This document shows positions 6,725-24,458 of a DNA stretch of 64,000 bases, piece by piece. Position 1 is the first letter of the stretch. Each line of letters opens with the position of its first letter. Position numbers and translations under genes: made by a program. A model generated the notes under the pieces. That model saw only the letters and a list, made by a program, of their open reading frames with translations. It had not been told where the DNA came from and ran no database searches. This DNA comes from an uncultured Acidobacteriota bacterium. GTDB taxonomy: Bacteria > Acidobacteriota > UBA6911. Location: contig CAWJKZ010000013.1 in NCBI GenBank assembly GCA_963843575.1, forward strand, positions 64,001-128,000, given 5' to 3'.

Positions 6725-7083
6725 ACTCACTGCCACAACCGCGGACCCTGACCCTGGCCCAGGTACGGGACATGCTGAACGCCCAGGCCTTCACCGAACT
6801 CGATCTCTCGGCTCCTGTCCAGCGGGTGGGCGCGGCGGATCTGATGAGCGACGTGCTCGCTCTGGGCTGGCCGGGGATGCTCCTGCTGACGGGCCTGGTC
6901 GGCCCCCAGGTGATTCGGACTGCCATCGTGGCGGACCTGTGCGGGGTCGTTTTCGTGCGCGGGAAAAAGCCTAGCGATGACATCCTGGCACTGGCGTTGA
7001 AGGCCCGAATCCCGGTCCTGGGGACGGCACTGACGATGTTCGAGGCGGCGGGGGTGCTCTACGGAGCAATCGGCGGCAGGTGA
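6721..7083 (+). CDS. DRTGG-domain protein
   Basis: AADLMSDVL...LLLTGL...VFVRGKKP pattern typical of hydrogenase-cassette DRTGG proteins. Confidence 0.85.
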   Translation: MNSLPQPRTLTLAQVRDMLNAQAFTELDLSAPVQRVGAADLMSDVLALGWPGMLLLTGLVGPQVIRTAIVADLCGVVFVRGKKPSDDILALALKARIPVLGTALTMFEAAGVLYGAIGGR

Positions 7084-7086
7084 GCG

Positions 7087-7518
7087 ATGGAGCGCGAGGA
7101 GTTCGAGTCCAGCTACCAGGTCGCCGGCCGCGACTTCACGAACGCCGGGAGGGTCTCGACCGACATTAAGGACACGCTCAAGCGCCTCGGCGTCGCCCCG
7201 TCGATCATGCGCAGGGTCGCGATCGCCTGCTACGAGGCGGAGATGAACATAGTCATGTACGCCCATCGCGGGCGGATGGCCCTCCGGGTCAGCCCCCGGG
7301 TGGTGACCATCGAAGCCGCCGACGAAGGACCGGGCATCCAGGACATTGAGCTTGCGATGCAGGAGGGTTATTCGACGGCGACGCCGGAGATGAGAGAAAT
7401 GGGGTTCGGCGCCGGGATGGGGCTGCCGAACATCCGCAGAAACAGCGACGAACTCGAGATCAGTTCCACCGTCGGCCGGGGCACACGGCTGGTGATCCGC
7501 GTGCTCCAATCCGCGTGA
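7087..7518 (+). CDS. Anti-sigma-factor-type Ser/Thr kinase (RsbT/RsbW-like HATPase)
   Basis: YEAEMN, DEGPGI, GYST and GAGMGLPN motifs. Confidence 0.88.
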   Translation: MEREEFESSYQVAGRDFTNAGRVSTDIKDTLKRLGVAPSIMRRVAIACYEAEMNIVMYAHRGRMALRVSPRVVTIEAADEGPGIQDIELAMQEGYSTATPEMREMGFGAGMGLPNIRRNSDELEISSTVGRGTRLVIRVLQSA

Positions 7519-8852
7519 GGAAGAACGTGGCCGCTCAGTACCATCATTCGTTGCGGTTCGATTCCGAGAATTGCGACGGCTGCATGTCCTGTCTGCGTGC
7601 CTGCCCGACGGCAGCGGTGCGGGTGCGCAACGGCCACGCGGTCAAGCTGGCGGACCGGTGCATCGATTGCGGCGAGTGCATCCGGGTCTGCCCCCGCGGC
7701 GCCATCGTTCCCCTCACAAACCACATGGCCGACCTGTCGAAGTTCGAGTGCACGGTGGCCGTGCCCTCGCCGGCCCTCTACGCCCAGTTCGACGCCGATG
7801 TGTCGCCGGGCGCCATCTTCGCCGCCCTCCGCCAGTGCGGCTTTGACGATGTGGAGTGCCTGTCGCCGGCCTGCGATTCCGTCAGCGCGGCCACCGAGAT
7901 GTACCTCAACGCGTACCGGGGCCAGTATCCTCTTATCTCGTCGTTCTGCCCGACCGTGGTCCGGCTAGTCCAGGTGAAGTATCCCGAACTGGTGGACCAA
8001 CTGCTGCCGGTACTGGCTCCGCGCGAGGTTTCCGCCCGGGACGCCAAGGCCCGCAAATCGGCCGAGACCGGCCTTGCCCCCGATCAGATTGGCGCGGTGT
8101 ACATCACCCCGTGCCCCGGCAAGATGGTGGCCATCCTGGAACACCCCGGCATGCAGAGGTCATATCTTGACACCGCCATCTCCATCAGCGACCTCTTCCA
8201 GACCCTTGCGGCGGCAGTCGCCGGTATCGACGATTCCGAGGCGTACCGGCAGGCCGCCGAAACCGCCTCGGGTGTGAGCTGGGCCTTCATGGGCGGTTTG
8301 CCGCGTTCGCTCCCCGCCGAGAACACCCTCGCGGTCGCCGGCCTCCCCAACGTGATCCGCATCCTGGACGACGTCGAAAAGGGGAAGCTTCGGAGGTACT
8401 CGTTCATCGACTGCCACGCCTGCGCCGAGGGGTGTGTGGGCGGATGCCTCACGGTGGAAAACCCGTACGTGGCGCGCGGCAAGATGATCATGTTGTGGCA
8501 GACACTCCCTGCCGGCCCGGCGCTTGACCGCGACGACGTGGAGCGGCGCTACCGCGAAGGCGCGTTCCTGATGGACGAGCCCCTGGCGAGCCGCCCGCTC
8601 AGGCCGCTCGACGAGGACATCTCGCGTGCCATCGCCAAGATGAAGCAGAGGGACCGGATCGTGGCGACCCTGCCCGGGATCGACTGCGGCGCCTGCGGCG
8701 CTCCGTCTTGCCGGGCCTTTGCCGAGGACGTGGTCCTCGGGGACGCCGGGGAAGAGTCGTGCGTCTTCTTTCTCCAGCAGGAGCTCACCGACAGGATCGA
8801 AGGGCTCGCACGCCTCGTCCAGGGCAAGCGCCCCGATGGAGGCCTGAAATGA
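7515..8852 (+). CDS. [FeFe]-hydrogenase-like Fe-S protein (putative sensory, group D/HydS-like)
   Basis: N-terminal 2x[4Fe-4S]. Divergent H-cluster motifs SSFCP, TPCPGK and CHACAEGCVGG. C-terminal DCGACGAPSC Fe-S domain. Confidence 0.8.
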   Translation: MRKNVAAQYHHSLRFDSENCDGCMSCLRACPTAAVRVRNGHAVKLADRCIDCGECIRVCPRGAIVPLTNHMADLSKFECTVAVPSPALYAQFDADVSPGAIFAALRQCGFDDVECLSPACDSVSAATEMYLNAYRGQYPLISSFCPTVVRLVQVKYPELVDQLLPVLAPREVSARDAKARKSAETGLAPDQIGAVYITPCPGKMVAILEHPGMQRSYLDTAISISDLFQTLAAAVAGIDDSEAYRQAAETASGVSWAFMGGLPRSLPAENTLAVAGLPNVIRILDDVEKGKLRRYSFIDCHACAEGCVGGCLTVENPYVARGKMIMLWQTLPAGPALDRDDVERRYREGAFLMDEPLASRPLRPLDEDISRAIAKMKQRDRIVATLPGIDCGACGAPSCRAFAEDVVLGDAGEESCVFFLQQELTDRIEGLARLVQGKRPDGGLK

Positions 8853-9202
8853 ACGTCGAACAGCTTGCAGCGCAGCTCGGTGCGGAAGTGGTATGCGGGG
8901 GGGCTCGGGCCGCGAGCCGCGAGATCCTCGGCGGCTACGCCTCGGACCTGCTTTCGGACGTGATGGCCAATAGCTGCGAAGGGGACCTCTGGGTGACGCT
9001 GCAGCGGCACGTCAATGTCGTGGCGGTGGCCCAGCTCAAAGGGCTGGCCGGGATCCTCCTGGTGAACGGGCGCCGGCCCGAGCCGGCCGCAGCCGAACGC
9101 GCGGACGTGGAGGGCATTCCGATCGTCACCACGGGATTGCCGGCGTTTGAGGTGATCGGCCGCCTTTGCGGGATGGGCATCGGGGGAAGGAGGTCGGGCT
9201 GA
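8849..9202 (+). CDS. DRTGG-domain protein
   Basis: GYASDLLSDVM...WVTLQRHVNVVAVA pattern. ATGA overlap with the upstream gene. Confidence 0.85.
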   Translation: MNVEQLAAQLGAEVVCGGARAASREILGGYASDLLSDVMANSCEGDLWVTLQRHVNVVAVAQLKGLAGILLVNGRRPEPAAAERADVEGIPIVTTGLPAFEVIGRLCGMGIGGRRSG

Positions 9203-10482
9203 GAGTGTTCATGCTGGACACCCACGTGCACACGTGCCTGTCGCCCTGCGCGGAACTGGAGATGCACCCGGCCGCCGTGGCCGGGGCGGCGGTCTCCTCC
9301 GGGCTGGATGCCGTCGCGGTGTGCGATCACAACTCGGCCGAGAATGCGGCCGCCGTGGCGCGCGCCGCGCACAGGTCCGGCCTCGCGGTGATTCCCGGCA
9401 TGGAGATCACCAGCGCCGAGGAGGTTCACGTCCTCGGCCTCTGTCCGGACCTCGAGGCGGCGCTGGAGCTGCAGGCACGTGTTTACCGCTGTCTGCCCGG
9501 CCGCAACGACGCGCGCGCATTCGGCATGCAGGTGGTGGCCAACGAAGACGAGGAGGTGCTCGGCTTCAACGACCACCTCCTGGCCGGCGCGACCACGATG
9601 GCCGTCGACGCCGTGGTCGACGCGATTCACCGGGTGGACGGCCTCGCCGTGGCGTCGCACGTCGACCGCGAGGCTTTTGGAATCTTCGGGCAGCTCGGCA
9701 TGATCCCGGCCGACCTCCGGTTGGATGCCCTGGAGGTCTCGCGACGCACCCCCCTGCCGTCCGCGCGTGCGTCGTTCGCCCCCGGCGGGGAGTGGACTAT
9801 CCTGTGCGCCTCCGATGCGCACGAGCCGAAGGATGTCGGGCAGGCGGCCACGTACATGCTGCTGCAGGAGCCGACCGTCGCGGAACTGCGCCGCGCTTTC
9901 GCCGGCGAAGGGGGACGGACGGTGCTCGGCGGAGGAATGCCGATGGAGGACTTGGCACTGCACATCCTGGACATCGCACGCAACAGCATCGATGCGGGGG
10001 CGACGGAGATCGAGATCGTCATCGAGGAAGACCTCGCCGGCAACCGGCTCACGATCGAGCTGCGCGACAACGGGCGCGGCATGAGCCCGGAAACACTCTC
10101 CCGGGCCGCGGATCCCTTCTTTACCACGCGCACCACGCGCCGGGTCGGCATGGGGCTGCCGCTGCTCGCCCAGGCCGCCCGCAGCGCCGGAGGCGGGCTC
10201 TCGCTGGAGTCGCAACCCGGGCGCGGGACGAGCGTGCGCGCGGTTTTCGAGCACGGCCACATCGATAGGGCACCCCTGGGAGACCTGGAAACAACCCTGA
10301 TGGTGCTGCTCGCAGGTCATTCGGAGATCGACATCAGGTTCCGGCACAGAGTAGACCACGCGGAGTACGAGCTCGACTCCGCCGACCTGCGCGCTGCCGG
10401 GATCGACGTGGGCTCCCCCGAGGGCCTGATGGCGGTGCGCGGCGTCATACGACAGGGAGAGAGATCGTTGTCCAGGAGCTGA
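9199..10482 (+). CDS. PHP phosphoesterase fused to HATPase kinase domain
   Basis: DTHVHTCLSPC, CDHN and SDAH (PHP), then in frame MEDLALHILDIARNS...DNGRG...RRVGMGLP. Start is probably CTG 9199 after AGGAGG (alternatively ATG 9211). Confidence 0.82.
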   Translation: MRVFMLDTHVHTCLSPCAELEMHPAAVAGAAVSSGLDAVAVCDHNSAENAAAVARAAHRSGLAVIPGMEITSAEEVHVLGLCPDLEAALELQARVYRCLPGRNDARAFGMQVVANEDEEVLGFNDHLLAGATTMAVDAVVDAIHRVDGLAVASHVDREAFGIFGQLGMIPADLRLDALEVSRRTPLPSARASFAPGGEWTILCASDAHEPKDVGQAATYMLLQEPTVAELRRAFAGEGGRTVLGGGMPMEDLALHILDIARNSIDAGATEIEIVIEEDLAGNRLTIELRDNGRGMSPETLSRAADPFFTTRTTRRVGMGLPLLAQAARSAGGGLSLESQPGRGTSVRAVFEHGHIDRAPLGDLETTLMVLLAGHSEIDIRFRHRVDHAEYELDSADLRAAGIDVGSPEGLMAVRGVIRQGERSLSRS

Positions 10483-10539
10483 ACCGGGCGTGGTCGAGGG
10501 AACGCGAGACGCGGACAGGAACTGACTTTGGGAGGAAAC

Positions 10540-11028
10540 ATGGTCGACGTCACAAGGGTTCGGGAAATCGTCGGTCGTCACGGCGGTAAACGGGAGCACA
10601 TGATCGCCATCCTGCTCGACTGCCAGGAAGAATACTGCTATCTGCCGCGGGAGGTTCTCGAGGAGCTGTCGGTCCAGATCGACACGCCGCTGACCTCCGT
10701 GCTTTCGATCGCCACGTTCTTCCGTGCCTTCAGCCTCAAGCCGGTGGGCCGCCACCAGGTCCACGTCTGCATGGGCACCGCCTGCAACATCCAGGGGGGG
10801 CCCCGGCTGGTCGAGGCGCTCGAACGCGAGCTGAAGATCAAGAAGGGCGAAACCACGCCGGACATGCAGTTCAGCCTCGACACGGTCAACTGTGTCGGGT
10901 GCTGCGGGCTCGCCCCGGTCATCACCGTCGGACAGGACGTGCACGGAAAACTGAAGCAGTCTTCCATCCCGAGGATTCTGAAGAAGTACAGGTCAAAGGA
11001 GGCAAGCGATGCCGAGACTGTCCATTGA
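10540..11028 (+). CDS. HydC/HndA/NuoE-like [2Fe-2S] subunit
   Basis: CMGTAC and CVGCCGLAP motifs. GGAGG RBS. Confidence 0.92.
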   Translation: MVDVTRVREIVGRHGGKREHMIAILLDCQEEYCYLPREVLEELSVQIDTPLTSVLSIATFFRAFSLKPVGRHQVHVCMGTACNIQGGPRLVEALERELKIKKGETTPDMQFSLDTVNCVGCCGLAPVITVGQDVHGKLKQSSIPRILKKYRSKEASDAETVH

Positions 11029-11392
11029 GGATCTCAAGCGGATACGCGACGAGTCGCGGCACATCCTCACGCTCAGGTCGGGGGAGGCCCGGGCGAAGGT
11101 GACGGTCCACATGGGTACCTGCGGCATTTCGGCCGGTGCGCGCGACGTCATGGGCGCCCTGCTGAAGGCCATCGAGGAACGCAAGATCACCGACGTGATC
11201 GTCACTACGTCGGGTTGTGCCGGGCTCTGCAGCCGGGAGCCGATGGCGACCGTGGAGCTCGCCGGCCAGCCACCGGTCAAGTACGTCGACCTCAAACCGG
11301 ACCGCATGATCCGCATACTGCAGGAGCACGTGCTCGAGGGCAGAATCGTCACCGACTTCGCGCTGGCCAGGGGCTGTGAGACGACCGGCTAG
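11009..11392 (+). CDS. HydD/HndB-like thioredoxin-fold subunit
   Basis: VHMGTCGISAGA and SGCAGLCSREP motifs. Confidence 0.88.
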   Translation: MPRLSIEDLKRIRDESRHILTLRSGEARAKVTVHMGTCGISAGARDVMGALLKAIEERKITDVIVTTSGCAGLCSREPMATVELAGQPPVKYVDLKPDRMIRILQEHVLEGRIVTDFALARGCETTG

Positions 11393-11469
11393 CCTTCCGG
11401 GACGCCCCGAAAACATCGGAAGGCGCGCAGCGCTTTGATCCGCACGTTTTTGCTGGAGGGAAGGGAGAG

Positions 11470-13309
11470 ATGGCATTCCGCACAAATGTTCTGGTTTGCG
11501 CAGGGACCGGGTGCGTGTCCGGGAACTCCTTTGCGACGGCCCGGGCGCTGGAGACCGAGGTGAAGAAACGGGGCCTGGGAGACGAAATCCAGGTGATACG
11601 CACAGGGTGCCAGGGCTTCTGCGCCGAGGGACCCATCGTGATTGTGCAGCCGGACGGCGTCTTCTACTGCGGCGTGGCCGCCAAGGACGCGCCGTACCTG
11701 GTGGAGGAACATTTCCTGAAAGGCCGGCCGGTGCAGAGGCTGATGTACTCGCCGCCGAAGGAAAAGAGCCCCATCCCGGCGCTCAAGGAGATTCCCTTCT
11801 TCGCCAAGCAGAAGCTGGTCGTGCTGCGCAACCGCGGGGCCATCGACCCGGAGCGCATCGACGACTACATCGCCGTGGACGGTTACACCGCACTGGTCAA
11901 AGCCCTGAGAGATGACGCCCGAGCAGATCATCCGGGAGATCAAGAAGTCGGGGCTGCGCGGGCGCGGCGGCGGCGGCTTTCCGACCGGCATCAAGTGGGA
12001 GACCTGCCGCCACGCAGCGAAACAGCGCAACGAGGAACCCGTCGTCGTCTGCAACGCCGACGAAGGCGACCCCGGGGCCTTCATGGACCGCAGCATCATC
12101 GAGAGCGACCCGCACTCCGTCCTCGAGGGGATGATCATCGGCGCGCGGGCGATCGGCTGCAAAGAGGGCTTCGTCTACATCCGGCACGAGTATCCCATTG
12201 CGCGCGAACGCCTGCTCAAGGCCATCGAGCAGGCGCGCGACTACGGCCTCCTCGGCAAGGGCATCCTGGGCTCCGAAATGGATTTCGACGTCGAGATCGT
12301 CCAGGGGGCGGGCGCATTCGTCTGCGGCGAATCGACGGCTCTCATGGCTTCGCTGGAGGGGAAGGCCGGCGAACCGCGCGCCAAGTACATCCACACGGTG
12401 GAGTACGGGTACAAGAACCGGCCGACGAACCTGAACAACGTCGAGACCTGGGCCAACGTCCCGCTGATCATCAGCCGCGGCGCCGAGTGGTTCGCGTCGA
12501 TGGGGACCGGCGAGGTCAGCGAGAATCCCTGGAACGGAAGCAGCGGGACCAAGGTGTTCTCGATGGTCGGCAAGGTGAACAACACCGGGCTGATCGAGGT
12601 CCCGATGGGCCTGACGCTGCGCGAGATCGTCTTCGACATTGGCGGCGGCATCGCGGGCGGCAGCAAATTCAAGGCGGTGCAGACCGGTGGTCCTTCCGGA
12701 GGGTGCCTCCCGGAAGAGCTGCTGGACATGCCGGTCGACTTCGACAGCCTGACCGAAGCGGGCTCGATGATGGGGTCCGGGGGCATGATCGTCATGGACG
12801 ACCAGACCTGCATGGTCGACGTGGCGCGCTACTTCATCGCCTTCCTGACCGAGGAGTCGTGCGGCAAGTGCGTGCCGTGCCGTGAGGGGTTGCGCACCTC
12901 GCTCGACACCCTCACCCGCATCTCGGAAGGCAAGGGGACCGAACACGACATCGAGCTCCTGTACGAGATCGGCGCCGTCATGCAGGACTGCTGTCTGTGC
13001 GCGCTGGGCACGTCCGCCCCGAACCCGGTGCTGTCGACGCTGCGCTATTTCAAGGAGGAGTACGACGCCCACATCAAGGACCACGTCTGCCCGGCGGGCG
13101 TCTGCAAGGACCTGATCGAGTACAGGATCGACGCGGAGAAGTGCGACGGGTGCCACGCCTGTGTGAAAGGCTGCTCCCCCGCGGCCATCGGGGGCGCGGT
13201 CAAGGAGAAGCACTCCATCGACGGGGACAAGTGCATCAAGTGCGGCGCCTGCCTTGAGGTGTGCAAGCGCGACGCGATCGTGAAAGTTCCGAGGAGTCAT
13301 GCGGCATGA
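11470..13309 (+). CDS. HydB/HndC/NuoF-like FMN- and NAD(H)-binding subunit (apparent frameshift near 11908)
   Basis: N-terminal CAGTGC/GCQGFC, then [41 protein letters not shown] and a C-terminal 2x[4Fe-4S]. The two ORFs join if one base is removed. Confidence 0.9.
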
Positions 13310-15064
13310 AGACCATCAAAGTGAAGATCAACGGGATCGAAGCCGAGGCTGCGGACCGCACCCCCATCCTGAACATCGCCGAAAAACTGGGGATCAAGAT
13401 CCCCACGCTGTGCCACCACCCGATCCTGGAACCCTATGGCGTGTGCCGCGTGTGCACCGTCGAGGTCCGCTCGGGCAAACGCGTCCGGATGGTGACGGCC
13501 TGCAATTACCCGGCGACGAACGGCATCGAGGTGCTGACCGATTCCGAGCGGGTCCGGCGCGACCGTAAGCTGATCATCGAGTGGCTGATGTCGCGCTGCG
13601 GGCACGTGCCGGTGATCGAGCAGCTCGCGGCCGAGTACGGCATCACGGAACCGCGGTTCGGACGCGGCGACGACGACTGCATCCTGTGCGGGCTCTGCGT
13701 GCGCGTCTGCTCCGACGTCGTCGGCGCCAATGTCCTCGGGTTCTTCAACCGCGGCACGACTCGCGAGGTCTCGACCGCCTACGGCGAGACCTCGGACAAA
13801 TGCATCGCCTGCGGGGCGTGTGCCCACGTCTGCCCCACAGGCGCAATCCGGATCGAGGACGACGCGGCCCTGGTCCAGAAAGAGCTCCCGATGGGGCCGC
13901 TCACCCCGATCGGCATCCCGTTCATGCAGGCGGTGCCGCACCAGCCGGTGATCGACCGCGATTCGTGCATTCACTTCAAGACCGGCGCGTGCAAGGTGTG
14001 CGAAAAGGTCTGCGAGGTGAAGGCGATCGACCACAGCCAGCAGGACCGCGTCGAGGAACTCGAGGTCGGGGCCGTCGTGCTGGCCACCGGCTTCCAGACC
14101 TTCGACGCCAGGAAGATCCCCGAGTACGGCTACGGCAGGTTCGACAACGTCCTGACCGGCATGGAGTTCGAAAAAATGAACAGCGCTTCGGGCTCGACCG
14201 GCGGCCGGATCCTCATGGCCGACGGCAAGGCCCCGAAGTCGGTGGGGATCATTCACTGCGTCGGCAGCCGCGACCAGCGCCACAACAAGCACTGCTCGCG
14301 CGTCTGCTGCATGTACGCGCTGAAGTTCGCACACCTGATCAAGGAGAAGACCGAGGCCGAGGTCTACAACTTCTACATCGACATGCGCTGCTTCGGAAAG
14401 GGCTACGAGGAGTTCTATCACCGCCTGCTGGAGGAGGGAGTGCGGTTCATCCGGGGCCGGGCCGCGTCGGTCACGGACTTCCCGTTGAACGAACACGAGC
14501 GCGGCAAGCTGATCATCCGCGTCGAGGACACGCTGCTCGGCCAGGTGCGGCGCATCCCGGTCGACATGGTCGTGCTGGCCACAGGGCTCGAAGCCGCAGA
14601 AGGCGCGGCCGAACTCGCCCGCACCTTCCACATCAGCTGCCAGCGGCGGTTTCTTCACCGAGCGGCACCCGAAGCTCGCCCCGGTGTCGACGGCCACGGA
14701 CGGGATCTACATCGCCGGCGCGTGCCAGGGGCCGAAGGACATCCCCGACACGGTCGCACAGGCCTCCGCGGCGGCGTCGCAGGTGCAGGCGCTGATGGCC
14801 AAGGGGGAGATCGAGGTCGAGTCCGCCACGAGCATCGTGGATGCCGAGAAGTGCGCCGGGTGCAGGATCTGCAACACCCTCTGCTCGCTCTCGGCCATCA
14901 GCTTCGACGAGGAGAGGCACGTGTCGGTGATCAACGACGTGCTCTGCAAAGGGTGCGGCACCTGCGCTGCGGCATGCCCGAGCGCTGCCATCATCGCGCG
15001 GCACTTCACCGACGAGCAGCTGTTCGCCGAAATAGAAGGAGCTCTGTATGACGTTCGAGCCTAA
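13306..15064 (+). CDS. Fusion of HydA/NuoG-like Fe-S arm with HdrA C-terminal half (apparent frameshift near 14641)
   Basis: [2Fe-2S] (TLCHH..CRVC..AC) and 2x[4Fe-4S], then HdrA motifs [38 protein letters not shown]. After the shift come [15 protein letters not shown] and a C-terminal ferredoxin. Confidence 0.88.
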
Positions 15065-15485
15065 GATCGTGGGCATTCTCTGCAACTGGTGCTCGTACAC
15101 GGGCGCGGACCTGGCCGGAACCGCCCGCATCAAGTACGCCCCGAACGTGCGCATGATGCGTGTCATGTGCTCCGGCCGAGTCGACCCGACCTTCGTGCTG
15201 AAGGCGTTCGCCGACGGGGCCGACGGGGTGCTCGTCGCCGGGTGCCACCCGGGAGACTGCCACTACATCGACGGGAACTACAAGACCCTGCGCCGCATGG
15301 CGCTGCTGAAGAAGCTGCTCGCCGACTACGGTATCGAGCCGGAACGGTTCCGGCTGGAGTGGGTGTCCGCCTCGGAGGGCGACCGCTGGGCCGAGGTCGT
15401 CAACGGCATCACCGAAGACGTCCGCAGGCTCGGTCCGGCGAAGTTCAAGTCGAAAGGGAAAAAACGAGCCGCCCCGGCGGCCTAG
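15048..15485 (+). CDS. mvhD: MvhD [2Fe-2S] subunit
   Basis: CNWCSYTGAD, MCSGRV and GCHPGDCHY motifs. Confidence 0.95.
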   Translation: MTFEPKIVGILCNWCSYTGADLAGTARIKYAPNVRMMRVMCSGRVDPTFVLKAFADGADGVLVAGCHPGDCHYIDGNYKTLRRMALLKKLLADYGIEPERFRLEWVSASEGDRWAEVVNGITEDVRRLGPAKFKSKGKKRAAPAA

Positions 15486-15498
15486 CACACAGTCTCAT

Positions 15499-15631
15499 AA
15501 GTACGCTGACCTATTTTTCAGGACGCAGAAAACACGGGCGATGAAAGAGAAAAGCCAAAACAGAACGCAGATTCCGCGGGAATCCGCCTCCTGAAAAATG
15601 CGTTAGCGTATTTGCGAACATCAGTACCTAG
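15499..15631. repeat. MITE-like intergenic element, copy 1
   Basis: Imperfect inverted repeats at 15499-15523 and 15589-15613. Shares a 30-nt identical block and a 43-nt block with 35592-35781. Confidence 0.7.
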
Positions 15632-15670
15632 CAGACGCGGGCTGCACATCTACCGGTATTCGGAGGAAGC

Positions 15671-16627
15671 ATGGCGAAACTGAAATTGGCGTCCTACTGG
15701 GCGGCCGCATGCGGGGGATGCGACGTGGGGATCCTGGACCTGCACGAGAAGATCCTGGACCTCGCGGCAGCCGCGGACATCGTCTTCTGGCCCATCGCGC
15801 TCGATTTCAAGTACGAGGATGTCGAGGCCATGCCGGACGGCCACATCGACGTGACCCTGTTTCACGGGGCCGTCCGCAACTCCGAGAACGAGCATCTGGC
15901 GCGGCTGCTGCGCGCCAAGTCCAAGGTCCTGGTCGCATTCGGGACCTGCGCCCACATCGGCGGCATACCGGGCCTGGCCAACCTGTTCGACAAGAAGTCG
16001 ATCTTTCAGCGTGTCTACCACGACTCCCCCTCGACGGTGAACCCCGACGGCGTCGAACCCCAGCCTCGCTCCAGGGTGCCGGAAGGTGAAATTACGATCC
16101 CGGAGTTCTACGACACGGTCCGGTCCCTGGACCAGGTGGTCGACGTCGAGTACTATGTCCCCGGCTGCCCGCCGACCCCGAAGCAGATCTGGAAGGTGGT
16201 GGAGACGATCGTGTCGGGGCAACTGCCACCGCCCGGCGCCGTCATCGGCGCGTCGGAAAAGACGCAGTGCGACGAGTGCACGCGCAAGAAGAGCGAAAAG
16301 AAGATCACCGGATTCAAACGGATCGCGACCGCACAGCCCGATCCGGACACCTGTTTTCTCGACCAGGGTTTCCTGTGCGTCGGCCCCGTGACCCGGGGCG
16401 GATGCGACACCCGCTGCCAGCTGTCGGGAGTCGCCTGCCGCGGCTGCTATGGCCCGCCGCCGGGAGTGCTCGACCAGGGAGCAAAGGCGATCTCGGCCAT
16501 CGCCTCCGTGATCGAGGCCAAGGACGAGGCTGAGGTAGAACGCATAATCGCAGAGATCCCCGACCCGCTCCGGAGCTTTAACCGGTTCGGCATCCCGGGA
16601 TCCTTATTGGTGAGGAAAGCATTATGA
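15671..16627 (+). CDS. mvhG: Group 3c [NiFe]-hydrogenase small subunit
   Basis: CGGC, GTCA, PGCPP, CDEC, CFL..G..C.GP and CRGCYG motifs. Confidence 0.92.
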   Translation: MAKLKLASYWAAACGGCDVGILDLHEKILDLAAAADIVFWPIALDFKYEDVEAMPDGHIDVTLFHGAVRNSENEHLARLLRAKSKVLVAFGTCAHIGGIPGLANLFDKKSIFQRVYHDSPSTVNPDGVEPQPRSRVPEGEITIPEFYDTVRSLDQVVDVEYYVPGCPPTPKQIWKVVETIVSGQLPPPGAVIGASEKTQCDECTRKKSEKKITGFKRIATAQPDPDTCFLDQGFLCVGPVTRGGCDTRCQLSGVACRGCYGPPPGVLDQGAKAISAIASVIEAKDEAEVERIIAEIPDPLRSFNRFGIPGSLLVRKAL

Positions 16628-18084
16628 AGCGCATTTCGATTGATCCCATCACGCGGCTGGAGGGGCACGGCAAGATCGACATCTTCCTGGCCGACGACGG
16701 CAGCGTCGCAAACTGCTACTTCCAGGTGCCCGAGCTGCGCGGCTTCGAGAAGTTCGTCGAAGGCATGCCGGCCGAGGAAGTCCCGCGCGTGGTGTCGCGC
16801 ATCTGCGGCGTCTGACCGGCCGCACACCATTTGGCCTCGGGTAAGGCCATAGATGCAGTCTACAAGGTCGATCCGCCGGTCACGGCGAAGAAGCTGCGCG
16901 AGCTCTACTACAGCGCTCACTTCATGCACAGCCACATAGCCCACTTCTACGCGCTCGCCGCCCCCGACTTCGTCGTGGGCCCGGACGCCGATCCCGCGAA
17001 GCGGAACATCCTCGGCATCGTGGAAAAAGTCGGGGTCCCCGTGGCGGCCGAAGTCCTCAAACACCGCGCCATCGCGCAGGACATCCAGATCATGGTGGGG
17101 GGCAGGTCGACCCACCCCGTCTGGACTCTGCCGGGCGGCGTGTCCAAGGGGATCACCGACGCTCAGCGGCTGGAGATCGTCGAGAAGGCGAAATCGTGCG
17201 TGGAGTTCGCCAGGTTCTCCCTGAAGCTGTTCGAGGACATCGTACTCCAGAACAAGACCTACCTCGACCTGGTCCTCTCGGACATCTACGAGCTCGACTC
17301 GTACTGGATCGGGACCGTCGACGAGAAAAACCGGGTGAACTTCTACCAGGGCGAGCACCGCGTCGTGGATCAGGACGCCAAGGAAGTCTTCCGGTACAAG
17401 GACCACGAGTACCTCGATTTCATCTCGGAACGGGTCGAGCAGTTCAGCTACCTGAAGTTCCCCTTCCTGAAGAAGATCGGCTGGAAGGGGCTCGTAGCCG
17501 GACGTGACTCGGGCGTGTACCAGGCGACCCCGCTCTCGCGGCTCAACGCGGCCGACGGGATGGCGACGCCGCTGGCGCAGGCCGAGTACGAGAAGATGTA
17601 CAAAACCCTCGGCGGCAAACCTGTGAAAAAGCTCCTGGCCACGCACTGGGCGCGGCTGGTCGAGTTGCTGTACGCGGCCGAGCGGATGCTCGAGCTGGCC
17701 CAGGACCCGCAGGTCGCGTCGACCGACATCCGCACCCTCCCGACGGCGGTCCCGGAAGAGGGCATCGGGATCGTCGAGGCGCCGCGTGGAATCCTGACCC
17801 ATCACTACAAGACAGACCGGAACGGGCTCATCACCGAAGCGAACCTCGTCGTGGGAACGACGAATAATCATGCGCCGATCTCGCTGGCGATCAAGCAGGC
17901 CGCCCAGCGGCTCATCCAGCCCGGAAAGGCGATCGGGCAGGATCTCCTCAACATGGTGGAGATGGCGTTCCGGATCTTTGACCCGTGCTTCTCGTGCGCG
18001 ACCCACTCCCTGCCGGGGGAAATGCCCCTCGTCGTGGAGGTCCACGCCGCCGACGGCACCGTGGTCCACCGCGTTTCGCGGTAG
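16624..18084 (+). CDS. mvhA: Group 3c [NiFe]-hydrogenase large subunit, predicted selenoprotein (UGA at codon 64)
   Basis: TRLEGHG, RGFE, then RICGV-TGA-PAAHHLAS continuing in the same frame to EAPRG and DPCFSCATH plus a C-terminal extension. 486 aa with readthrough. Confidence 0.9.
16816..16856 (+). promoter_or_regulatory. Candidate bacterial SECIS element
   Basis: Stem TGGCCT (16832-16837) / AGGCCA (16844-16849) with loop CGGGTA starting 22 nt after the TGA. Stem extends via CAT/ATG. Confidence 0.75.
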
Positions 18085-18126
18085 CACCTGCGCGTCGGGC
18101 GGCGCGTGGCAATCAGCGGAATAACG

Positions 18127-18179
18127 AAGCCGGAAGTCAGGACCCGGGAACGGCTGCTGGCTTCCGGCTTTTGGCTTTT
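18127..18179 (+). terminator. Hairpin with T-tract after mvhA
   Basis: AAGCCGGAAGTCAG...CTGGCTTCCGGCTT followed by TTGGCTTTT. Confidence 0.5.
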
Positions 18180-18234
18180 GGCGCGAACCAGATTCACGTT
18201 ACGCAGCACATAACGGACTGCCGCGATACACCCT

Positions 18235-18732
18235 ATGCGAACGCGGGTAATTGGTCTGGGCAACAGCCTCCTGTCCGACGACGGCGTCGGGATTTACGCG
18301 GCCCGGGAAGTGGCGCGCCGACTCGCCGGGACCGCTCGCGCGGATCCGGTGGACGTAACCGAGTCGGAAGTGGCGGGCTTCGCCCTGATGGAGCTGATGG
18401 CCGGCTGGGACCGCGTCGTGCTCGTCGACTCCGTTGTGTTCGAAGGAGTCGAACCGGGTACGGTCCTGCAGCTGGCGGCCGACGACCTGCACACCTCTCT
18501 CCGGCTGCGTTCCGTGCACGATATCGACCTCCCTACCGCCCTCGAACTCGGCCGTCGCCTCGGCCTGAGTATGCCGTCCGATGTCGTGATCTTCGGCATC
18601 CAGGTCCTGGATCCGTACACCCTGGGGGAAACCCTCACGGAACCTGCAGCCGCCGGACTGCGCGCCGCGACAGACCTGATCCTCCGGGAATTAATTCCCG
18701 CCGACTGCCCCAATTTCCTGCCGCCCTTGTAG
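18235..18732 (+). CDS. Hydrogenase maturation protease (HycI/HybD family)
   Basis: VIGLGNSLLSDDGVG, VDS and SVHD motifs. Follows a large subunit that has a cleavable tail. Confidence 0.93.
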   Translation: MRTRVIGLGNSLLSDDGVGIYAAREVARRLAGTARADPVDVTESEVAGFALMELMAGWDRVVLVDSVVFEGVEPGTVLQLAADDLHTSLRLRSVHDIDLPTALELGRRLGLSMPSDVVIFGIQVLDPYTLGETLTEPAAAGLRAATDLILRELIPADCPNFLPPL

Positions 18733-18784
18733 TTGTGCCTCGGACAAGTCAGAATTGGTACAAACAGCTCGGAGGGTTCGTGGA

Positions 18785-19795
18785 ATGAAAAGCATGCGTT
18801 TGCTGATCTGCCTGACACTGTGCGCCGCTCTCTGCGCGGCTTTGCCGCTCGAGGCCGCGGTAAAGACCGAACAGAAGAGCCAGATGAAATTCGAGGGGAT
18901 GATGGGCCGCATGATGGGTCTCTTCGGCGGCAAGGCCATGAAGGAGGGGGTCGTCAACACCGTCGCGGTCAAGGGGAACCGCAAGGCGACCTTCAGCGAC
19001 AACGGCGGCGAGATCATCGACCTGGATGAAGAAAAGGTCTACACGATCGACGCCAAGAAGAAGACCTACGACGTGACCACCTTCGCCGAGATGAAGCGCC
19101 GGATGGAGGAGGCCAGGGAGAAGGCCGAGAAGCAGGCGCGCCAGGAGGCGGGCAAGAAGGAAGCGGAGCCGTCGCAACAGCAGCAAGAACAGAAGATGGA
19201 AATCGACGTTTCGCTCAAGGAATCCGGACAGAAACGAACCATCAACGGCTTCGACTGCCGCGAGGTCGTCATGACCGTCACGGCGCGCGAGAAGGGAAAG
19301 ACGCTCGAGCAGGCCGGCGGAATGGTCCTTACCTCGAACATGTGGCTGGCCCCACGCATCGAGGCCATGAAGGAGGCGGAGGAATTCGACTGCCGTTACG
19401 CGCAGAAGCTGGGCGAGATCGTCGGCGTTCCGTCGGGGGAACAGGCCACCGCCGCGCTGGCGATGTACCCGGGGTTCAAGGACATGATGGGCAAGATGCA
19501 GACCGAAAAGGTCAACATGGACGGCACGGCGATCCTGACCGTGATGACCATGGAGGCGGTCAAGAGCCCCGAGCAGATGTCCCAGCAGCAGCGCGAGAGC
19601 GAGTCGTCGGATACGCCCGCCCGCGGCATCGGCGGGCTGATCGGCCGCAGAATCATGCGGAAAAAGGAGGAGAGTCCCTCACAGGCTCCCAACCGCGCGA
19701 CGATCATGACCATGAACAGCGAACTGCTCAAGGTCACGCCCGACGTGACCGCCGCCGACCTGGCCATACCTGCGGGCTTCCGCGAAACAAAGTGA
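18785..19795 (+). CDS. Secreted hypothetical protein (DUF4412-like)
   Basis: Signal peptide, GQKRTINGFDCR motif and C-terminal IPAGFRE. Confidence 0.7.
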   Translation: MKSMRLLICLTLCAALCAALPLEAAVKTEQKSQMKFEGMMGRMMGLFGGKAMKEGVVNTVAVKGNRKATFSDNGGEIIDLDEEKVYTIDAKKKTYDVTTFAEMKRRMEEAREKAEKQARQEAGKKEAEPSQQQQEQKMEIDVSLKESGQKRTINGFDCREVVMTVTAREKGKTLEQAGGMVLTSNMWLAPRIEAMKEAEEFDCRYAQKLGEIVGVPSGEQATAALAMYPGFKDMMGKMQTEKVNMDGTAILTVMTMEAVKSPEQMSQQQRESESSDTPARGIGGLIGRRIMRKKEESPSQAPNRATIMTMNSELLKVTPDVTAADLAIPAGFRETK

Positions 19796-19803
19796 CCGGC
19801 GAA

Positions 19804-20030
19804 GTGGGCCGCGTCGGCCCGACGCGGCCCCAGTCTTCCTCCTGTAAACCGCCCGGATATTGCGGACGAAAAGCAGCGGTACACCTTCGTCGGTTCGCCG
19901 CGGAAGCTTTGGTTCGCACAAACGGCAGACTCTTGCCTTGTGGGCAGGTGGACTCGTCCTTCAGCTCGTCGCACGTGAAAGTTGTGTCAGCCGGTACGTC
20001 TGTGGCCCGCGTCGGCCCGACGCGGCCCAC
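19804..20030. repeat. Pair of GTGG-type REP-like palindromes
   Basis: GTGGGCCGCGTCGGCCCGACGCGGCCC at 19804-19830 and a near-identical copy ending CCAC at 20002-20030. Confidence 0.75.
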
Positions 20031-20125
20031 TTCAATCCGGACCCACGTGGCTCGAAGAATACGCAGAAACACCACAATCCTGAGCGGCCGCCGTGCTAGA
20101 TTCAACCCCCGAGGAGGAGGCAAGC

Positions 20126-21016
20126 ATGACGGCGACACTGATCAGGGGCGCCGCAATTGCGGCGTCGATCCGGGAAGAACTCAAGCGCGAGGTCGACAGC
20201 CTTAAACAGAAGCACGGTGTCACGCCGGGCCTGGTGACGGTGCTGGTGGGGCACAATCCGGCGTCCGAGAGCTATGTTCGGGCGAAGCAAAAGACCGCGC
20301 ACGAGCTCGAGTTTCACTCGATCCAGGAGGACCGGCCCCAGGACATGACCCAGGAAAGCCTCCTGGAGCTCGTGCGGAGCTACAATGCCGATCCTGCGAT
20401 TCACGGCATTCTCGTCCAGCTGCCGCTCCCTCCCCACATCAACGAGACACGGGTGTTGTATGCCCTGGACCCCCGCAAGGACGTCGACGCGTTCCACCCC
20501 GTGAACGTCGGCAAGCTCGTGATCGGCGAAGCCGACTACCTCCCGTGCACGCCGGCCGGCATCCAGCAGCTCCTCGTCCGCTCCGGTGTCAAAGTGGAAG
20601 GCGCGGAGGTCGTGGTCGTCGGGCGTTCGAACATCGTGGGGAAGCCGATCGCGAACATCCTGATGCAGAAAGCGAAGGGGGCCAACGCCACCGTAACCGT
20701 GTGCCACACCCGCACGCGCGACATCGCGTCACACTGCCGCCGCGCCGACATCCTGATCGTCGCCGCAGGGGTACCGGAGTACGTGCGCGGGGAGATGATC
20801 AAGCCCGGCGCCGTGGTGATCGACGTGGGGGTGAACGAGGTGGGAAAAACCGCCGAGGGGAAACGCATCCTCAAGGGGGACGTGGCGTTCGAAGAAGCCG
20901 TCCAGGTTGCCGGGGCCATCACGCCCGTGCCCGGCGGCGTAGGCCCGATGACGATCACCATGCTCATGCGCAACACCGTCAGGGCCTGCAAGGTCTGGAA
21001 CGGGATCGCCGACTAG
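20126..21016 (+). CDS. folD: Methylene-THF dehydrogenase/cyclohydrolase
   Basis: HGILVQLPLP, KDVD, PCTP, GRSNIVGKP and TPVPGGVGPMT motifs. Confidence 0.97.
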   Translation: MTATLIRGAAIAASIREELKREVDSLKQKHGVTPGLVTVLVGHNPASESYVRAKQKTAHELEFHSIQEDRPQDMTQESLLELVRSYNADPAIHGILVQLPLPPHINETRVLYALDPRKDVDAFHPVNVGKLVIGEADYLPCTPAGIQQLLVRSGVKVEGAEVVVVGRSNIVGKPIANILMQKAKGANATVTVCHTRTRDIASHCRRADILIVAAGVPEYVRGEMIKPGAVVIDVGVNEVGKTAEGKRILKGDVAFEEAVQVAGAITPVPGGVGPMTITMLMRNTVRACKVWNGIAD

Positions 21017-21037
21017 CCGTTTCCGCAAAAATAACCA

Positions 21038-21066
21038 GTGGGTCCGGGCGTTCAGCCCGGACCCAC
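21038..21066. repeat. REP-like palindrome between convergent genes
   Basis: GTGGGTCCGGGC-GTTCA-GCCCGGACCCAC. Related copies at 24459-24563. Confidence 0.7.
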
Positions 21067-21086
21067 TTGCTAGGTTGAGACACCCG

Positions 21087-22907
21087 TTACGCGTAGCGTC
21101 CGTAGACGGGGCCGAAGGTCCGGCAGGCGCGCATGTCCGCGGCGGCCAGGTCGCCGGTCCCGAATGCGGTCCAGGCGCTGGGCCGGAATATGCGCTCCTC
21201 GGCGACGTTGTGCATGTACACGGGGATACGGAGTATCGACGCCAGCGTAATCAGGTCCGCCCCGACGTGGCCGTAGCACAGGGCTCCGTGATTGGCGCCC
21301 CAGTTGTTCATCACCGAATACACGTCGCGGAAAGCGGAGCTCCCGTTCAGGATCGGCGCAAACCACGTCGTCGGCCAGCTGGGGTCGGTCCGCTCGTTGA
21401 GCACGCGGTGCACCCTGGCCGGGATATCGACGGAATACCCTTCGGCGATCTGCAGGGCCGGCCCGAGGCCCTTGATCATGTTGAGGCGGGTCATGGTGAG
21501 CGGGATGCCGCCACGAGTCTTGAAGCACGTCGACCAGCCGCCGCCGCGCATGTATTCGGTCACCGCCGGCCGAAACCGCGTCGCCTCCAGGCAACGCCGC
21601 ACGTCGGCAGCCGTGATTTCCCAGAACGGCTTGAGCAAAGGGTTCCCTCCTGCCTCCTCCCCTCCCGAACCGTCGAGGGCGGCGGCTCCCGAGTTGATCA
21701 GGTGGAGCATTCCTCCCTCCGCGGCCCCCGACAGCTTGTGCTGGGTGACGCGGCGGACCGCGGCGGGGCTCCAGAACGTGCGGACGTCGGCGAAGATCTG
21801 GGCCGTGTGGGTCAGGAGGTTCCCCATCAGCATGCACACGCCGTTGAGGCTGTCGTTCTCGGTGGCGACGACGTAGGGGGCGCGGATCCCGTTCCAGTCA
21901 AAGGAGCTGTTGAGGATCGTCTCCAGGAAGTCGCCGTTCGGGTAGTAGTCCGTCCACTGCCGCTGTCCCTGGAACCCGGCGGCGATGGCGTTGTGGCCGA
22001 GCGCCTCCTCGCCGTGACCGAGGTCGTGTAGCAGGGGGTTTCCGATCATGAGATCGCGTGCGATGAGCGCCATCTTCACCGAGGTTTCCCATTCCATGTC
22101 GAGGTGCTCGCGACTGCGGCGGCTCTTGGGCGGGTTGTTGTCCTCCCCCTCTTTGCAGTTGGCGCGGACCCACTCGAGGGCGCGCTGGTACTCGCCGGTG
22201 TCGTAGATGCCGGAGCCGGTGCGCCGGGCGAACTCGGTCAGGTCTATGCTGACGACGCGCATCCCGAGATAGCTCTCGAAAAGCGACTGATCCACGATGG
22301 AACCGGCGATCCCCATCGAGACTCCGCCCATCGAGAGGTAAGTCTTGCCCCGCATGATCGTGGCGGCCAGCGCGCCACGCGCAAACCGGAGGAGCTTGTC
22401 CTTTACGTCTTCGGGGATCGAACGGTCCCCGGCGTCCTGCACGTCGCGGCCGTAGATACCGAACGCGGGCAGCCCTTTCTGGTTGTGCGCCGCCAGCACG
22501 GCGGCCAGGTACACGGCGCCGGGGCGTTCGGTGCCGTTGAAGCCCCAGACCGCCTTGGGCGAGAGCGGGTCCATGTCCATCGTCTCGGAACCGTAGCACC
22601 AGCAGGGCGTGACGGTGAGTGACACGGTGGCCCCCTCGCGGGCGAACTTGTCGGCCGCCATGGCCGCCTCGGCCGCCCCGCCGATGCAGGTATCGGAGAT
22701 GACGCACTCGATCGGCTGGCCGTTCGGGTAGCGCACGTGGGCGGAGAGCAGGGCGGCGACGGAGCGTGCCATTTCCATCGTCTGTCCCTCGAGCGACTCC
22801 CGCACGCCGTGGCGCCGCCCGTCGATGATCGGACGGATGCCGATCTTGGGCAGACGTCCGATCCACCGGTTGACCTGCGCATCCACTGTGGATTCCCTGC
22901 TAGCCAT
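21087..22907 (-). CDS. fucI: L-fucose isomerase
   Basis: [37 protein letters not shown] and WGANH motifs. Confidence 0.96.
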
Positions 22908-24420
22908 GGTGTGTCTTCTCCTCTTCTCGCAACGATGGTTGACACGCGGAACGTATCCGCGTGAAATCGCCGAATCGCTGTTCCCAAACCTGCACGTCGC
23001 CCGGCTCGTATGTGACCGTCTCGAAGGAACGCCGTATCAAGTCGCGCCCTTCTTCGCGTGACGCGATGGAGCCGGTGCCCGCCATCTGCATCAGGATGTT
23101 ACCAGCCGATGTCGCTTCCACCGGTCCGGTCACGACCGGGCGGTTGAGCGCGTTGGCGGTGAACTGGTTCAACAGCCTGTTGCGCGACCCCCCTCCGACG
23201 ATGTGGAGCACGTCCAGGCGATACCCGAGCAAATCCTCCAGCTGCTCCAGAACGAGGCGGTATTTGAATGCCAGGCTCTCCAGGGCGGTCCGCACCAAGG
23301 CCCCTTTGCCCGCTGGCGGCTCCTGCCCGGTGCGCCGGCAGAATTCCTGGATGCGGGCAGGCATGTCCCCCGGGGGCGCGAATTCCGGAGCATCGGGATC
23401 GATCGCGGCCGCAAACGAAGGGGCCGCCGCAGCAAGCGCGGTCAGGTCGTTGTAGCTCGTGTCGTCGCCCTTGGACGCCCAGGTGCGCTTGCACTCCTGG
23501 ACGAGCCAGAGCCCGCTGATGTTCTTCAGCAGCCTGACGGTGTCGAAAACCCCGATTTCATTAGTAAAACCGGCGGCGAGGGTTCTCGAGTCGATGACCG
23601 GATCCCGTAATTCCACCCCCATAAGCGACCAGGTCCCGGAGCTGAGATAGGCGTGCCGGGCACCCCGCGCAGGGACGGCCGCGACGCCCGAAGCCGTGTC
23701 GTGGCAGCCCGGCGCCACGACCTGGATCGGCCCCGCGCCGGTTTCCTCGGCGACTTCGGGCAGCAGCGGCCCGAGCGCGGTCCCCGGGTCCACGATCTCG
23801 CCGAAGATGCGGTCCGGCAACTCCAGGGCACCGATCACCCGGCGGGACCACTTCTTCTTTCTCGGGTCGTAGAGCTGGCTTGTGCTTGCGATCGTCCTCT
23901 CGTTGACGCCGGCGCCGCACAGCCAGGAATTCAGCAGGTCGGGGATGAACAGCAACCGGCTGGCGATCGAGAGCGCCGGCGCGCCAGCCACCACCTCCGA
24001 GAGCAGCTGATATATGGTGTTGAAGAACATGAACTGGATGCCGGTCTCGGCATAGATGTCCGCCTTCGGCAGCCTGCGGAAAGCCTCGTCCATCATTCCG
24101 TCGGTCCGGCGGTCACGGTAGTGAACGGGTTGGCCGAGCAGGCAGCCGCCGGCGTCGACCAATCCATAATCCACACCCCAGGTGTCGACCCCGACGCTCA
24201 CGACGCCGGATCCGTAAGCCCGGGCGGCCAGCGCGATGCCCCGCTTGATCTCCGAATACAGGTAAAGGACATCCCAGTACAGGCTGCCGCGCAGCCGCAC
24301 GGGAACGTTGGCAAAACGGTGGACCTCCTCGATGCGCAGCCGCGCGCCGTCAAAGCGGCCGGCCATCACACGGCCGCTCTCGGCCCCCAGGTCCACGGCC
24401 AGGTAGACCTTTTCCCTCAT
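22900..24420 (-). CDS. Rhamnulokinase/fuculokinase (FGGY family)
   Basis: [19 protein letters not shown] and SSGTWSL motifs. Adjacent to fucI. Confidence 0.92.
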
Positions 24421-24458
24421 GATTGAACGAGTATCCAACAGAGACACCCGCAGAGCAA

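Follow-up and report, generated by a model that had tools for sequence, protein, structure and literature searches.

We analyzed a 64,000-nucleotide stretch of DNA from an uncultured Acidobacteriota bacterium (contig CAWJKZ010000013.1; hereafter the window, in whose numbering all coordinates are given) and focused on a gene encoding an MvhA-like large subunit of a [NiFe] hydrogenase, here called mvhA, which lies in an operon on the plus strand (Table 1). The mvhA frame runs from an ATG at 16624 to a TAG at 18082–18084, and its sole interruption over the 486 codons translated is a TGA at 16813–16815, which occupies the place of the second cysteine (Cys) in the N-terminal RxCGxC nickel motif (R-I-C-G-V-TGA-P-A-A-H-H). 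An initial annotation had proposed that this codon specifies selenocysteine (Sec) at the ligand bridging nickel and iron, and had described an all-Cys C-terminal motif and a gene split into pieces of 63 and 417 residues. The TGA is evident in both sequence and translation, the DPCFSC motif stands at 17980–17997 of the translation, and both pieces occur in the mechanical list of open reading frames (ORFs), at 16624–16815 and, starting from a TTG, at 16831–18084. The canonical Sec position is encoded by TGC (17986–17988), yielding DPCFSC, and mvhA therefore departs from the canonical [NiFeSe] arrangement.

The mvhA product matches the PF00374 family with 130.9 bits against a cut-off of 25.8 (Pfam; E 8.9e-38) and contains both ligand motifs, RxCGxCxxxH as RICGV[TGA]PAAHH and DPCxxCxxH as DPCFSCATH, with the TGA as the second N-terminal ligand. 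Its top NCBIfam model is VhuA (400.4 bits), the solved structure most similar to it is MvhA from the Hdr-Mvh complex of a methanogen (5odc_F; E 8.7e-110), and its closest named relatives are found in Acidobacteriota metagenome-assembled genomes (MAGs; 83–85% identity). The product ends in an extension of 25 residues past the A-T-H, predicted to be cleaved, and a maturation protease gene follows at 18235–18732. The clustering of mvhA with mvhG, mvhD and a gene for an HdrA-like flavoprotein is that of Group 3c hydrogenases.

Table 1. Features of the hydrogenase locus, in window coordinates.
Feature	Position	Strand	Evidence
NuoE/HoxE-like [2Fe-2S] subunit	10528–11028	+	PF01257, E 1.5e-45
Small 2Fe-2S ferredoxin-like ORF	11009–11392		
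NuoF-like FMN/NAD(H) subunit	11912–13309	+	PF01512 and PF10589; nuoF_fam 436.9 bits, under cut-off
NuoG-type N-terminal Fe-S part fused to HdrA-like flavoprotein part	13261–15051	+	Fer2_4 and Fer4; HdrA2 280 bits, residues 214–478
mvhD-like subunit, Cys form, no in-frame stop	15048–15485	+	PF02662, E 3.4e-55
mvhG-like small subunit	15671–16627	+	PF01058; VhuG 230.7 bits, under cut-off
mvhA-like [NiFe] hydrogenase large subunit	16624–18084	+	486 codons through one TGA; PF00374; VhuA; 5odc_F
N-terminal Ni motif R-I-C-G-V-U-P-A-A-H-H	16798–16830	+	Aligned with RICGICQVAHH of 5odc_F
In-frame TGA, predicted Sec codon, residue 64	16813–16815	+	Same column TGA in 27 of 109 relatives
SECIS-like hairpin, 6-bp stem (16832–16837 with 16844–16849), loop CGGGUA (16838–16843)	16832–16849	+	Fold, conservation
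C-terminal Ni motif D-P-C-F-S-C, all Cys, then A-T-H and 25-residue tail	17980–17997	+	Translation
Hydrogenase maturation endopeptidase	18235–18732	+	PF01750; TIGR00072 98.4 bits against cut-off 47.45

TGA/Cys alternation and the downstream hairpin

The alternation of TGA and Cys at the ligand column, which the initial annotation had suggested looking for, was found among the relatives of mvhA: 27 of the 109 scored carry TGA at the second N-terminal Cys column and the other 82 carry Cys, a truncated Cys-type locus (L042) having been dropped by the filter. The best 80 relatives in the species-genome collection comprise 23 TGA and 57 Cys forms. An mvhA match at E up to 1e-60 is present in 19 of 41 related genomes, and orthologues of 84–85% identity carry either TGA (genomes G021, G006 and G001) or TGC or TGT (G017, G014 and G004) at the same codon. 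A pattern scan of the whole collection for the TGA together with the hairpin described below returned 97 stretches from at least 92 genomes, as counted by isolate name, and the same pattern with a Cys codon (TGY) returned 9. All 97 sit behind R-[ILV]-[C or stop]-G-V, and 73 read on to the all-Cys C-terminal motif without a further stop, the remaining 24 loci ending before the motif. The form spans at least 8 phyla, with 32 stretches in Chloroflexota, 16 in Bacillota, 15 in Acidobacteriota, 9 in Krumholzibacteriota, 8 in Thermodesulfobacteriota, 2 in Planctomycetota and 1 each in Myxococcota and Latescibacterota, and 13 with no phylum assigned.

These counts bear on the alternative that the true codon is TGC or TGT and that sequencing or assembly turned it into TGA, to which we assign a negligible probability. 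The assembly does contain many frame breaks of the indel type, but the errors seen are indels and not substitutions, and TGA stands at this very column in another 26 loci from the protein search and in the 97 stretches from the pattern scan. One independent contig also agrees with the TGA: a soil-metagenome contig covering 16745–17114 (X1 record 8) spans the codon with no difference listed. A contig from an RNA library (16571–16785; X9 record 25) ends before the TGA and is therefore silent on both the codon and transcription.

Sec and Cys forms are a mosaic in two main clades. On a FastTree phylogeny of 106 rows (25 Sec and 81 Cys forms, with L042, L043, L057 and L070 dropped), the Sec/Cys label changes at least 9 times, 6 of these changes being forced by well-supported branches, while shuffled labels required a mean of 22.8 changes and in none of 500 shuffles as few as 9. 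Among TGA-type orthologues, nonsynonymous divergence (dN) is 0.02–0.14 and synonymous divergence (dS) is at least 0.8 or saturated, on both sides of the TGA; with dN so far below dS, neither piece of mvhA is decaying.

Downstream of the TGA lies a hairpin that resembles a selenocysteine insertion sequence (SECIS). Counted on the sequence, it agrees with the initial annotation in its letters (TGGCCT, CGGGTA and AGGCCA), in a loop that starts 22 nucleotides past the TGA, and in a G at loop position 2 (16839); its local fold energy is −9.3 kcal/mol. Codon counts over mvhA likewise bear out the atypical usage that had been described for the hairpin region (TTG, ATA and GCA), as rare codons gather at 16822–16857: TTG (2 of 43 Leu codons, one of them at 16831), ATA (2 of 30 Ile codons, one at 16849), GCA (3 of 49 Ala codons, two of them at 16822 and 16855) and CAT (3 of 18 His codons, one at 16828), together with the sole GGT among 33 Gly codons, at 16840.

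Across relatives, the hairpin follows the TGA. A 16-nucleotide core, GGCCUCG[G/U]G[U/C]AAGGCC, is shared by all 27 TGA forms but recurs in just 1 of the 82 Cys forms, and loop position 2 is G in every TGA form. Third-codon positions +23, +26, +32 and +35 are invariant in the TGA forms and 35–74% conserved in the Cys forms; at +23, C occurs in 100% of TGA forms versus 35% of Cys forms, and at +35 in 100% versus 37%. The mean local hairpin energy is −9.4 kcal/mol for TGA forms versus −5.6 kcal/mol for Cys forms, of which 9 of 82 reach the weakest TGA-form energy (Mann-Whitney p 1.8e-11, a value that is overstated because the relatives are not independent). All 6 stem pairs are kept in 27 of 27 TGA forms by RNAalifold. 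The one Cys-type orthologue among the 82 with the full core, L034 in genome G004, either has reverted from TGA recently or is pre-adapted. A possible lower stem, in which the UG of the UGA would pair with bases past the hairpin, showed one-sided changes only and was rejected. When 16500–17100 was scanned against Rfam with E values up to 10 admitted, the sole match was one of 12.6 bits to cow-rumen-1, attributable to chance; to our knowledge, Rfam holds no bacterial SECIS model.

A further alternative is a split large subunit, with the 63-residue peptide and the 417-residue protein made separately and assembling in the manner of VhuA and VhuU of some methanococci, in which the split is at the other end of the protein. 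Split large subunits do exist, VhuU has an NCBIfam model of its own that matches residues 438–462 of the mvhA product, and a TTG lies five codons past the TGA. However, the P-A-A-H-H between TGA and TTG belongs to the conserved motif and is in frame in all relatives, and by eye there is no purine-rich ribosome-binding stretch before 16831, unlike GGTGAGGAAAG before 16624. Other TGA forms have CTG or ATG at this place in the same frame, so that it is the hairpin and not a start context that is conserved. We consider a split subunit extremely improbable.

Selenocysteine machinery and the reading of the UGA

The initial annotation had pointed to selA, selB, selC and selD as genes to look for, and the genome largely supplies them. 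A genome search found selB as an open frame scoring 373 bits, above its cut-off, and a single tRNA-Sec with anticodon UCA, scoring 74.6 bits on the Rfam tRNA-Sec model; it is the only UCA-anticodon tRNA among 47 (ARAGORN). In the ARAGORN drawing, its acceptor stem is 8 bp and its T stem 5 bp long, the extra arm is long and a G precedes the CCA, features that we take to be marks of tRNA-Sec. The selD gene is itself of the Sec type, with an in-frame TGA in a U-x-x-K context before A-S-K. The set thus comprises selB, tRNA-Sec and selD, the last of these frame-broken in the assembly, along with selA in pieces. The presence of selB does not separate TGA-type from Cys-type relatives, as it scores above the cut-off in 5 of 5 genomes (3 TGA-type and 2 Cys-type).

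Genome-wide reassignment of TGA was ruled out: mvhG ends on TGA, as do 31 of 51 open frames of at least 400 codons in the window. The TGA stop of mvhG (16625–16627) overlaps the mvhA start as ATGA, and since mvhG ends there, TGA is an ordinary stop in this genome. This also bears on the possibility that readthrough of the UGA inserts Cys, delivered by a Sec-like tRNA, or some other residue, leaving an ordinary [NiFe] site. According to Takano 2026 (PMC13582414), any call made by computation alone is subject to this limit, and with the genome 88% complete, a second suppressor tRNA could fall outside the assembly. Set against this, the sole UCA tRNA scores as tRNA-Sec, a SelB gene and a SelB-type hairpin are in place, and the neighboring mvhG uses TGA as an ordinary stop, such that we regard such readthrough as unlikely.

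A pseudogene, or a gene cut at codon 64 that yields no functional hydrogenase, would account for a frame that stops after 63 residues under the standard code, and selA and selD do look broken in the assembly. Yet the TGA is the only stop in the 486 codons, which are also free of frameshifts, TGA-type orthologues have a dN far lower than their dS both before and after the TGA, at least 8 phyla retain the TGA together with its specific hairpin, and the genes for the maturation protease and the partner subunits are intact; we judge this explanation very unlikely. Taken as a whole, the recurrence of the TGA in 27 of 109 relatives, its link to the hairpin, the 97 stretches, purifying selection and the Sec genes argue against both an error and a pseudogene.

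Given the TGA/Cys alternation at the column, a hairpin specific to the TGA forms and the Sec machinery in the genome, mvhA very probably encodes one full-length MvhA-type (Group 3c-like) large subunit in which the UGA at codon 64 is read as Sec. The same three lines of evidence favor the proposal of the initial annotation that Sec takes the N-terminal bridging position and not the C-terminal site. In the mechanism we propose, SelB carrying Sec-tRNA(Sec) would bind the hairpin, with its loop 22 nucleotides downstream of the UGA, and Sec would thereby be inserted at residue 64. In the mature enzyme, its selenolate would replace the second Cys of RxCGxC, one of two ligands that bridge Ni and Fe, and the first Cys of DPCxxC, the canonical Sec position, would remain Cys. 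The codon and its conservation, the hairpin with its link to TGA, the purifying selection and the Sec genes are observed; that Sec is inserted, that it bridges the two metals and which partners the enzyme has in the cell we infer.

Several observations weigh against this reading. By itself, the hairpin does not exceed chance: in a 71-nucleotide fold (16805–16875) it gave z −0.60, with 51 of 200 shuffles folding at least as well, and the minimum-energy structure omits the hairpin, which the centroid contains. Its significance therefore derives from comparison with relatives and not from a single-sequence fold. That comparison showed a compensatory double change in 0 of 11 RNAalifold pairs among the 27 TGA forms, so that the support consists, as far as the alignments indicate, of nucleotide conservation and of association with the TGA among related, non-independent sequences. 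Regarding the machinery, the frame of selD (C13:704799-705723, outside the window) shifts at a CCCC run, and selA (C8:2469-3523, on a 17-kb contig, likewise outside the window) is in pieces in at least three frames. A Hox-like hydrogenase elsewhere in the genome (C15:242726-244066) also contains many frame changes. The breaks in all three look like long-read indel errors in the assembly and not decay, with decay of the Sec machinery a less likely alternative for selA and selD. Read support is thin, as public runs each hold at most 0.29 of the sampled words, and among the contigs of four runs one crosses the TGA. The VhuA score of 400.4 bits is far under the equivalog cut-off of 800 (NCBIfam), and by this measure the mvhA product is related to the archaeal VhuA enzyme as a bacterial homologue without being its equivalog. 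HdrB and HdrC were not seen among the scanned ORFs of 5845–24447. Finally, a literature search, with subscription journals and supplements outside its scope, gave no characterized natural enzyme of the N-terminal CxxU type.

Known selenium-containing hydrogenases and the mvhA operon

In [NiFe] hydrogenases, the second N-terminal Cys bridges Ni and Fe, and Sec is canonically found in the C-terminal motif at its first Cys, a terminal ligand (Takano 2026, PMC13582414); the available passages of Evans 2021 (PMC8020662) are consistent with these roles. The canonical [NiFeSe] enzymes (Desulfomicrobium baculatum 1CC1, Desulfovibrio vulgaris Hys and methanococcal VhuA/VhuU) belong to the same protein family as the mvhA product (E ~1e-31 to 1e-39) and share with it one Ni ligand specified by UGA. 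In these enzymes, however, Sec takes the first Cys of the C-terminal motif, the terminal Ni ligand by the proton-relay Glu, whereas mvhA has Cys there and its predicted Sec is N-terminal. A 2026 selenoproteome review, in the part available, lists MvhA, VhuA and VhuU with UxxC only.

A close parallel is found in Group 4, for which Takano 2026 (PMC13582414) reports 47 sequences with N-terminal Sec, in CXXU, UXXC or UXXU form, and predicts that the Sec of N-terminal CXXU bridges Ni and Fe; this is the same column as the mvhA TGA. Features described there are matched in the MvhA-type set: a Sec/Cys mosaic with unchanged operons, co-occurrence with Sec genes, and a SECIS loop with G at position 1 or 2 that is lost in Cys relatives (Takano 2026). 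Group 4 enzymes are membrane-bound and energy-converting, in contrast to the mvhA enzyme, which is predicted to be soluble, to belong to the MvhA type of Group 3 and to have an HdrA-like protein and MvhD as partners. Reports of a UxxU motif have concerned only Group 4 enzymes (Takano 2026, PMC13582414).

Within the MvhA family, two loci from Planctomycetota MAGs, L194 (1007–1042, minus strand) and L212 (4669–4704, plus strand), have TGA at both N-terminal ligand codons (R-I-TGA-G-V-TGA-P) followed by the same hairpin, and the genome of L194 carries selB. In a Thermodesulfobacteriota locus, L249 (6511–6546), the N-terminal column is Cys with the hairpin intact, and the C-terminal motif has TGA in the canonical position (DP-TGA-MSC). 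The same holds for the C-terminal motif of L043, whose genome belongs to the same taxonomic family as the window. Both Sec positions therefore occur in the MvhA family.

The initial annotation had cautioned that the variant might already have been noted computationally, and earlier reports uphold this caution. Zhang and Gladyshev 2007 (PMC1976440) described, from contigs of Olavius symbionts, an 'FrhA' whose CxxU Sec was new, although the available text does not tell which CxxU motif is meant, and Baltazar 2011, as cited by Takano 2026 (PMC13582414), recorded N-terminal CXXU in two sequences of Group 1 and one of Group 3. As far as these sources could be followed, the sequences in both resemble mvhA in having their predicted Sec as the second Cys of a CxxC nickel motif and not at the canonical place, and in the Baltazar cases, according to Takano 2026 (PMC13582414), the motif is the N-terminal one with a bridging role, as predicted for mvhA. 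Since these reports and Takano 2026 are already in print, mvhA is not the first of its kind. It is a further case of a variant that is in print but uncharacterized, known through Zhang 2007, through Baltazar 2011 via Takano 2026, and, for Group 4, through Takano 2026. To the extent that these sources tell, the earlier cases are single sequences, whereas here 27 of 109 relatives, and 97 stretches spread over at least 8 phyla, have the MvhA-type variant and a single hairpin in common. The same literature search, within its stated scope, gave no description of the variant across Group 3.

An engineered enzyme offers the nearest experimental counterpart. In the available passages of Evans 2021 (PMC8020662), the C79U variant of Escherichia coli Hyd-1, altered at the equivalent Cys, was active with 13% of native H2 oxidation, the most of four variants, and had a lower apparent KM for H2 and less O2 tolerance than the native enzyme. 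Hyd-1 C79U shares with the predicted mvhA product a Sec at the second N-terminal Cys; from what those passages give, it is an artificial, UAG-programmed change in an O2-tolerant Group 1d enzyme, whereas mvhA is a natural Group 3 gene with a predicted SECIS-driven Sec.

Among solved complexes, the methanogen MvhAGD-HdrABC (PDB 5ODC) shares with the window the order hdrA-like, mvhD, mvhG, mvhA. Its ligands in 5odc_F are all four Cys (RICGIC and DPCLSC), as against RICGV[U] and DPCFSC predicted for mvhA. The window operon differs further in that hdrB and hdrC were not seen in it, the HdrA-like protein is fused to a NuoG-type part, and NuoE- and NuoF-like genes lie ahead. The block of hdrA-like, mvhD, mvhG, mvhA and protease genes is present in nearly all of the 80 relatives, Sec or Cys alike. 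NuoE and NuoF genes occur, among these 80, only in the Acidobacteriota clade and a few Dehalococcoidia, and the same distribution holds for the NuoG-type/HdrA-like fusion preceded by NuoE- and NuoF-like genes. From the domain content of the operon (nuoE-like, nuoF-like, NuoG/HdrA-like fusion, mvhD, mvhG, mvhA, protease), it is probable that the enzyme passes electrons between H2 and a module that is flavin-based and linked to NAD(H). Just upstream of the operon, the window encodes an [FeFe]-hydrogenase-like protein with an extra C-terminal Fe-S domain (7515–8852) and a protein with PHP-type and histidine-kinase-type ATPase parts (9166–10482), which may form an H2-sensing regulatory pair.

Beyond this locus, we lean modestly toward the view that bridging-selenolate MvhA-type hydrogenases are a widespread natural class of cytoplasmic [NiFeSe] enzyme, present in at least 8 phyla and in cultured strains, which would have arisen once, spread by gene transfer and reverted repeatedly to Cys, with a double-Sec UxxU form in Planctomycetota and a Ni-Fe site tuned otherwise than by terminal Se. 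A single origin is suggested by the one 16-nucleotide SECIS core common to the TGA forms. Cultured carriers with selB are Desulfotruncus alcoholivorax DSM 16058, Desulfoscipio geothermicus DSM 3669 and Desulforudis sp. Tu-874.

The variant has rarely been reported but is common among anaerobic bacteria, and this breadth, together with these cultured strains, is the useful part of the finding. Because the standard code reads such genes as two ORFs, the catalytic subunit can be hidden in metabolic reconstructions of soil and subsurface anaerobes. As far as the literature search showed, the biochemistry and structures of [NiFeSe] hydrogenases all concern Sec as a terminal Ni ligand, and the only data on Sec at the bridging position come from the engineered E. 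coli variant; with three cultured carriers that have selB, the chemistry of bridging Se becomes directly testable. If the reading of mvhA is correct, bridging Se would tune the Ni-Fe site otherwise than canonical terminal Se does.

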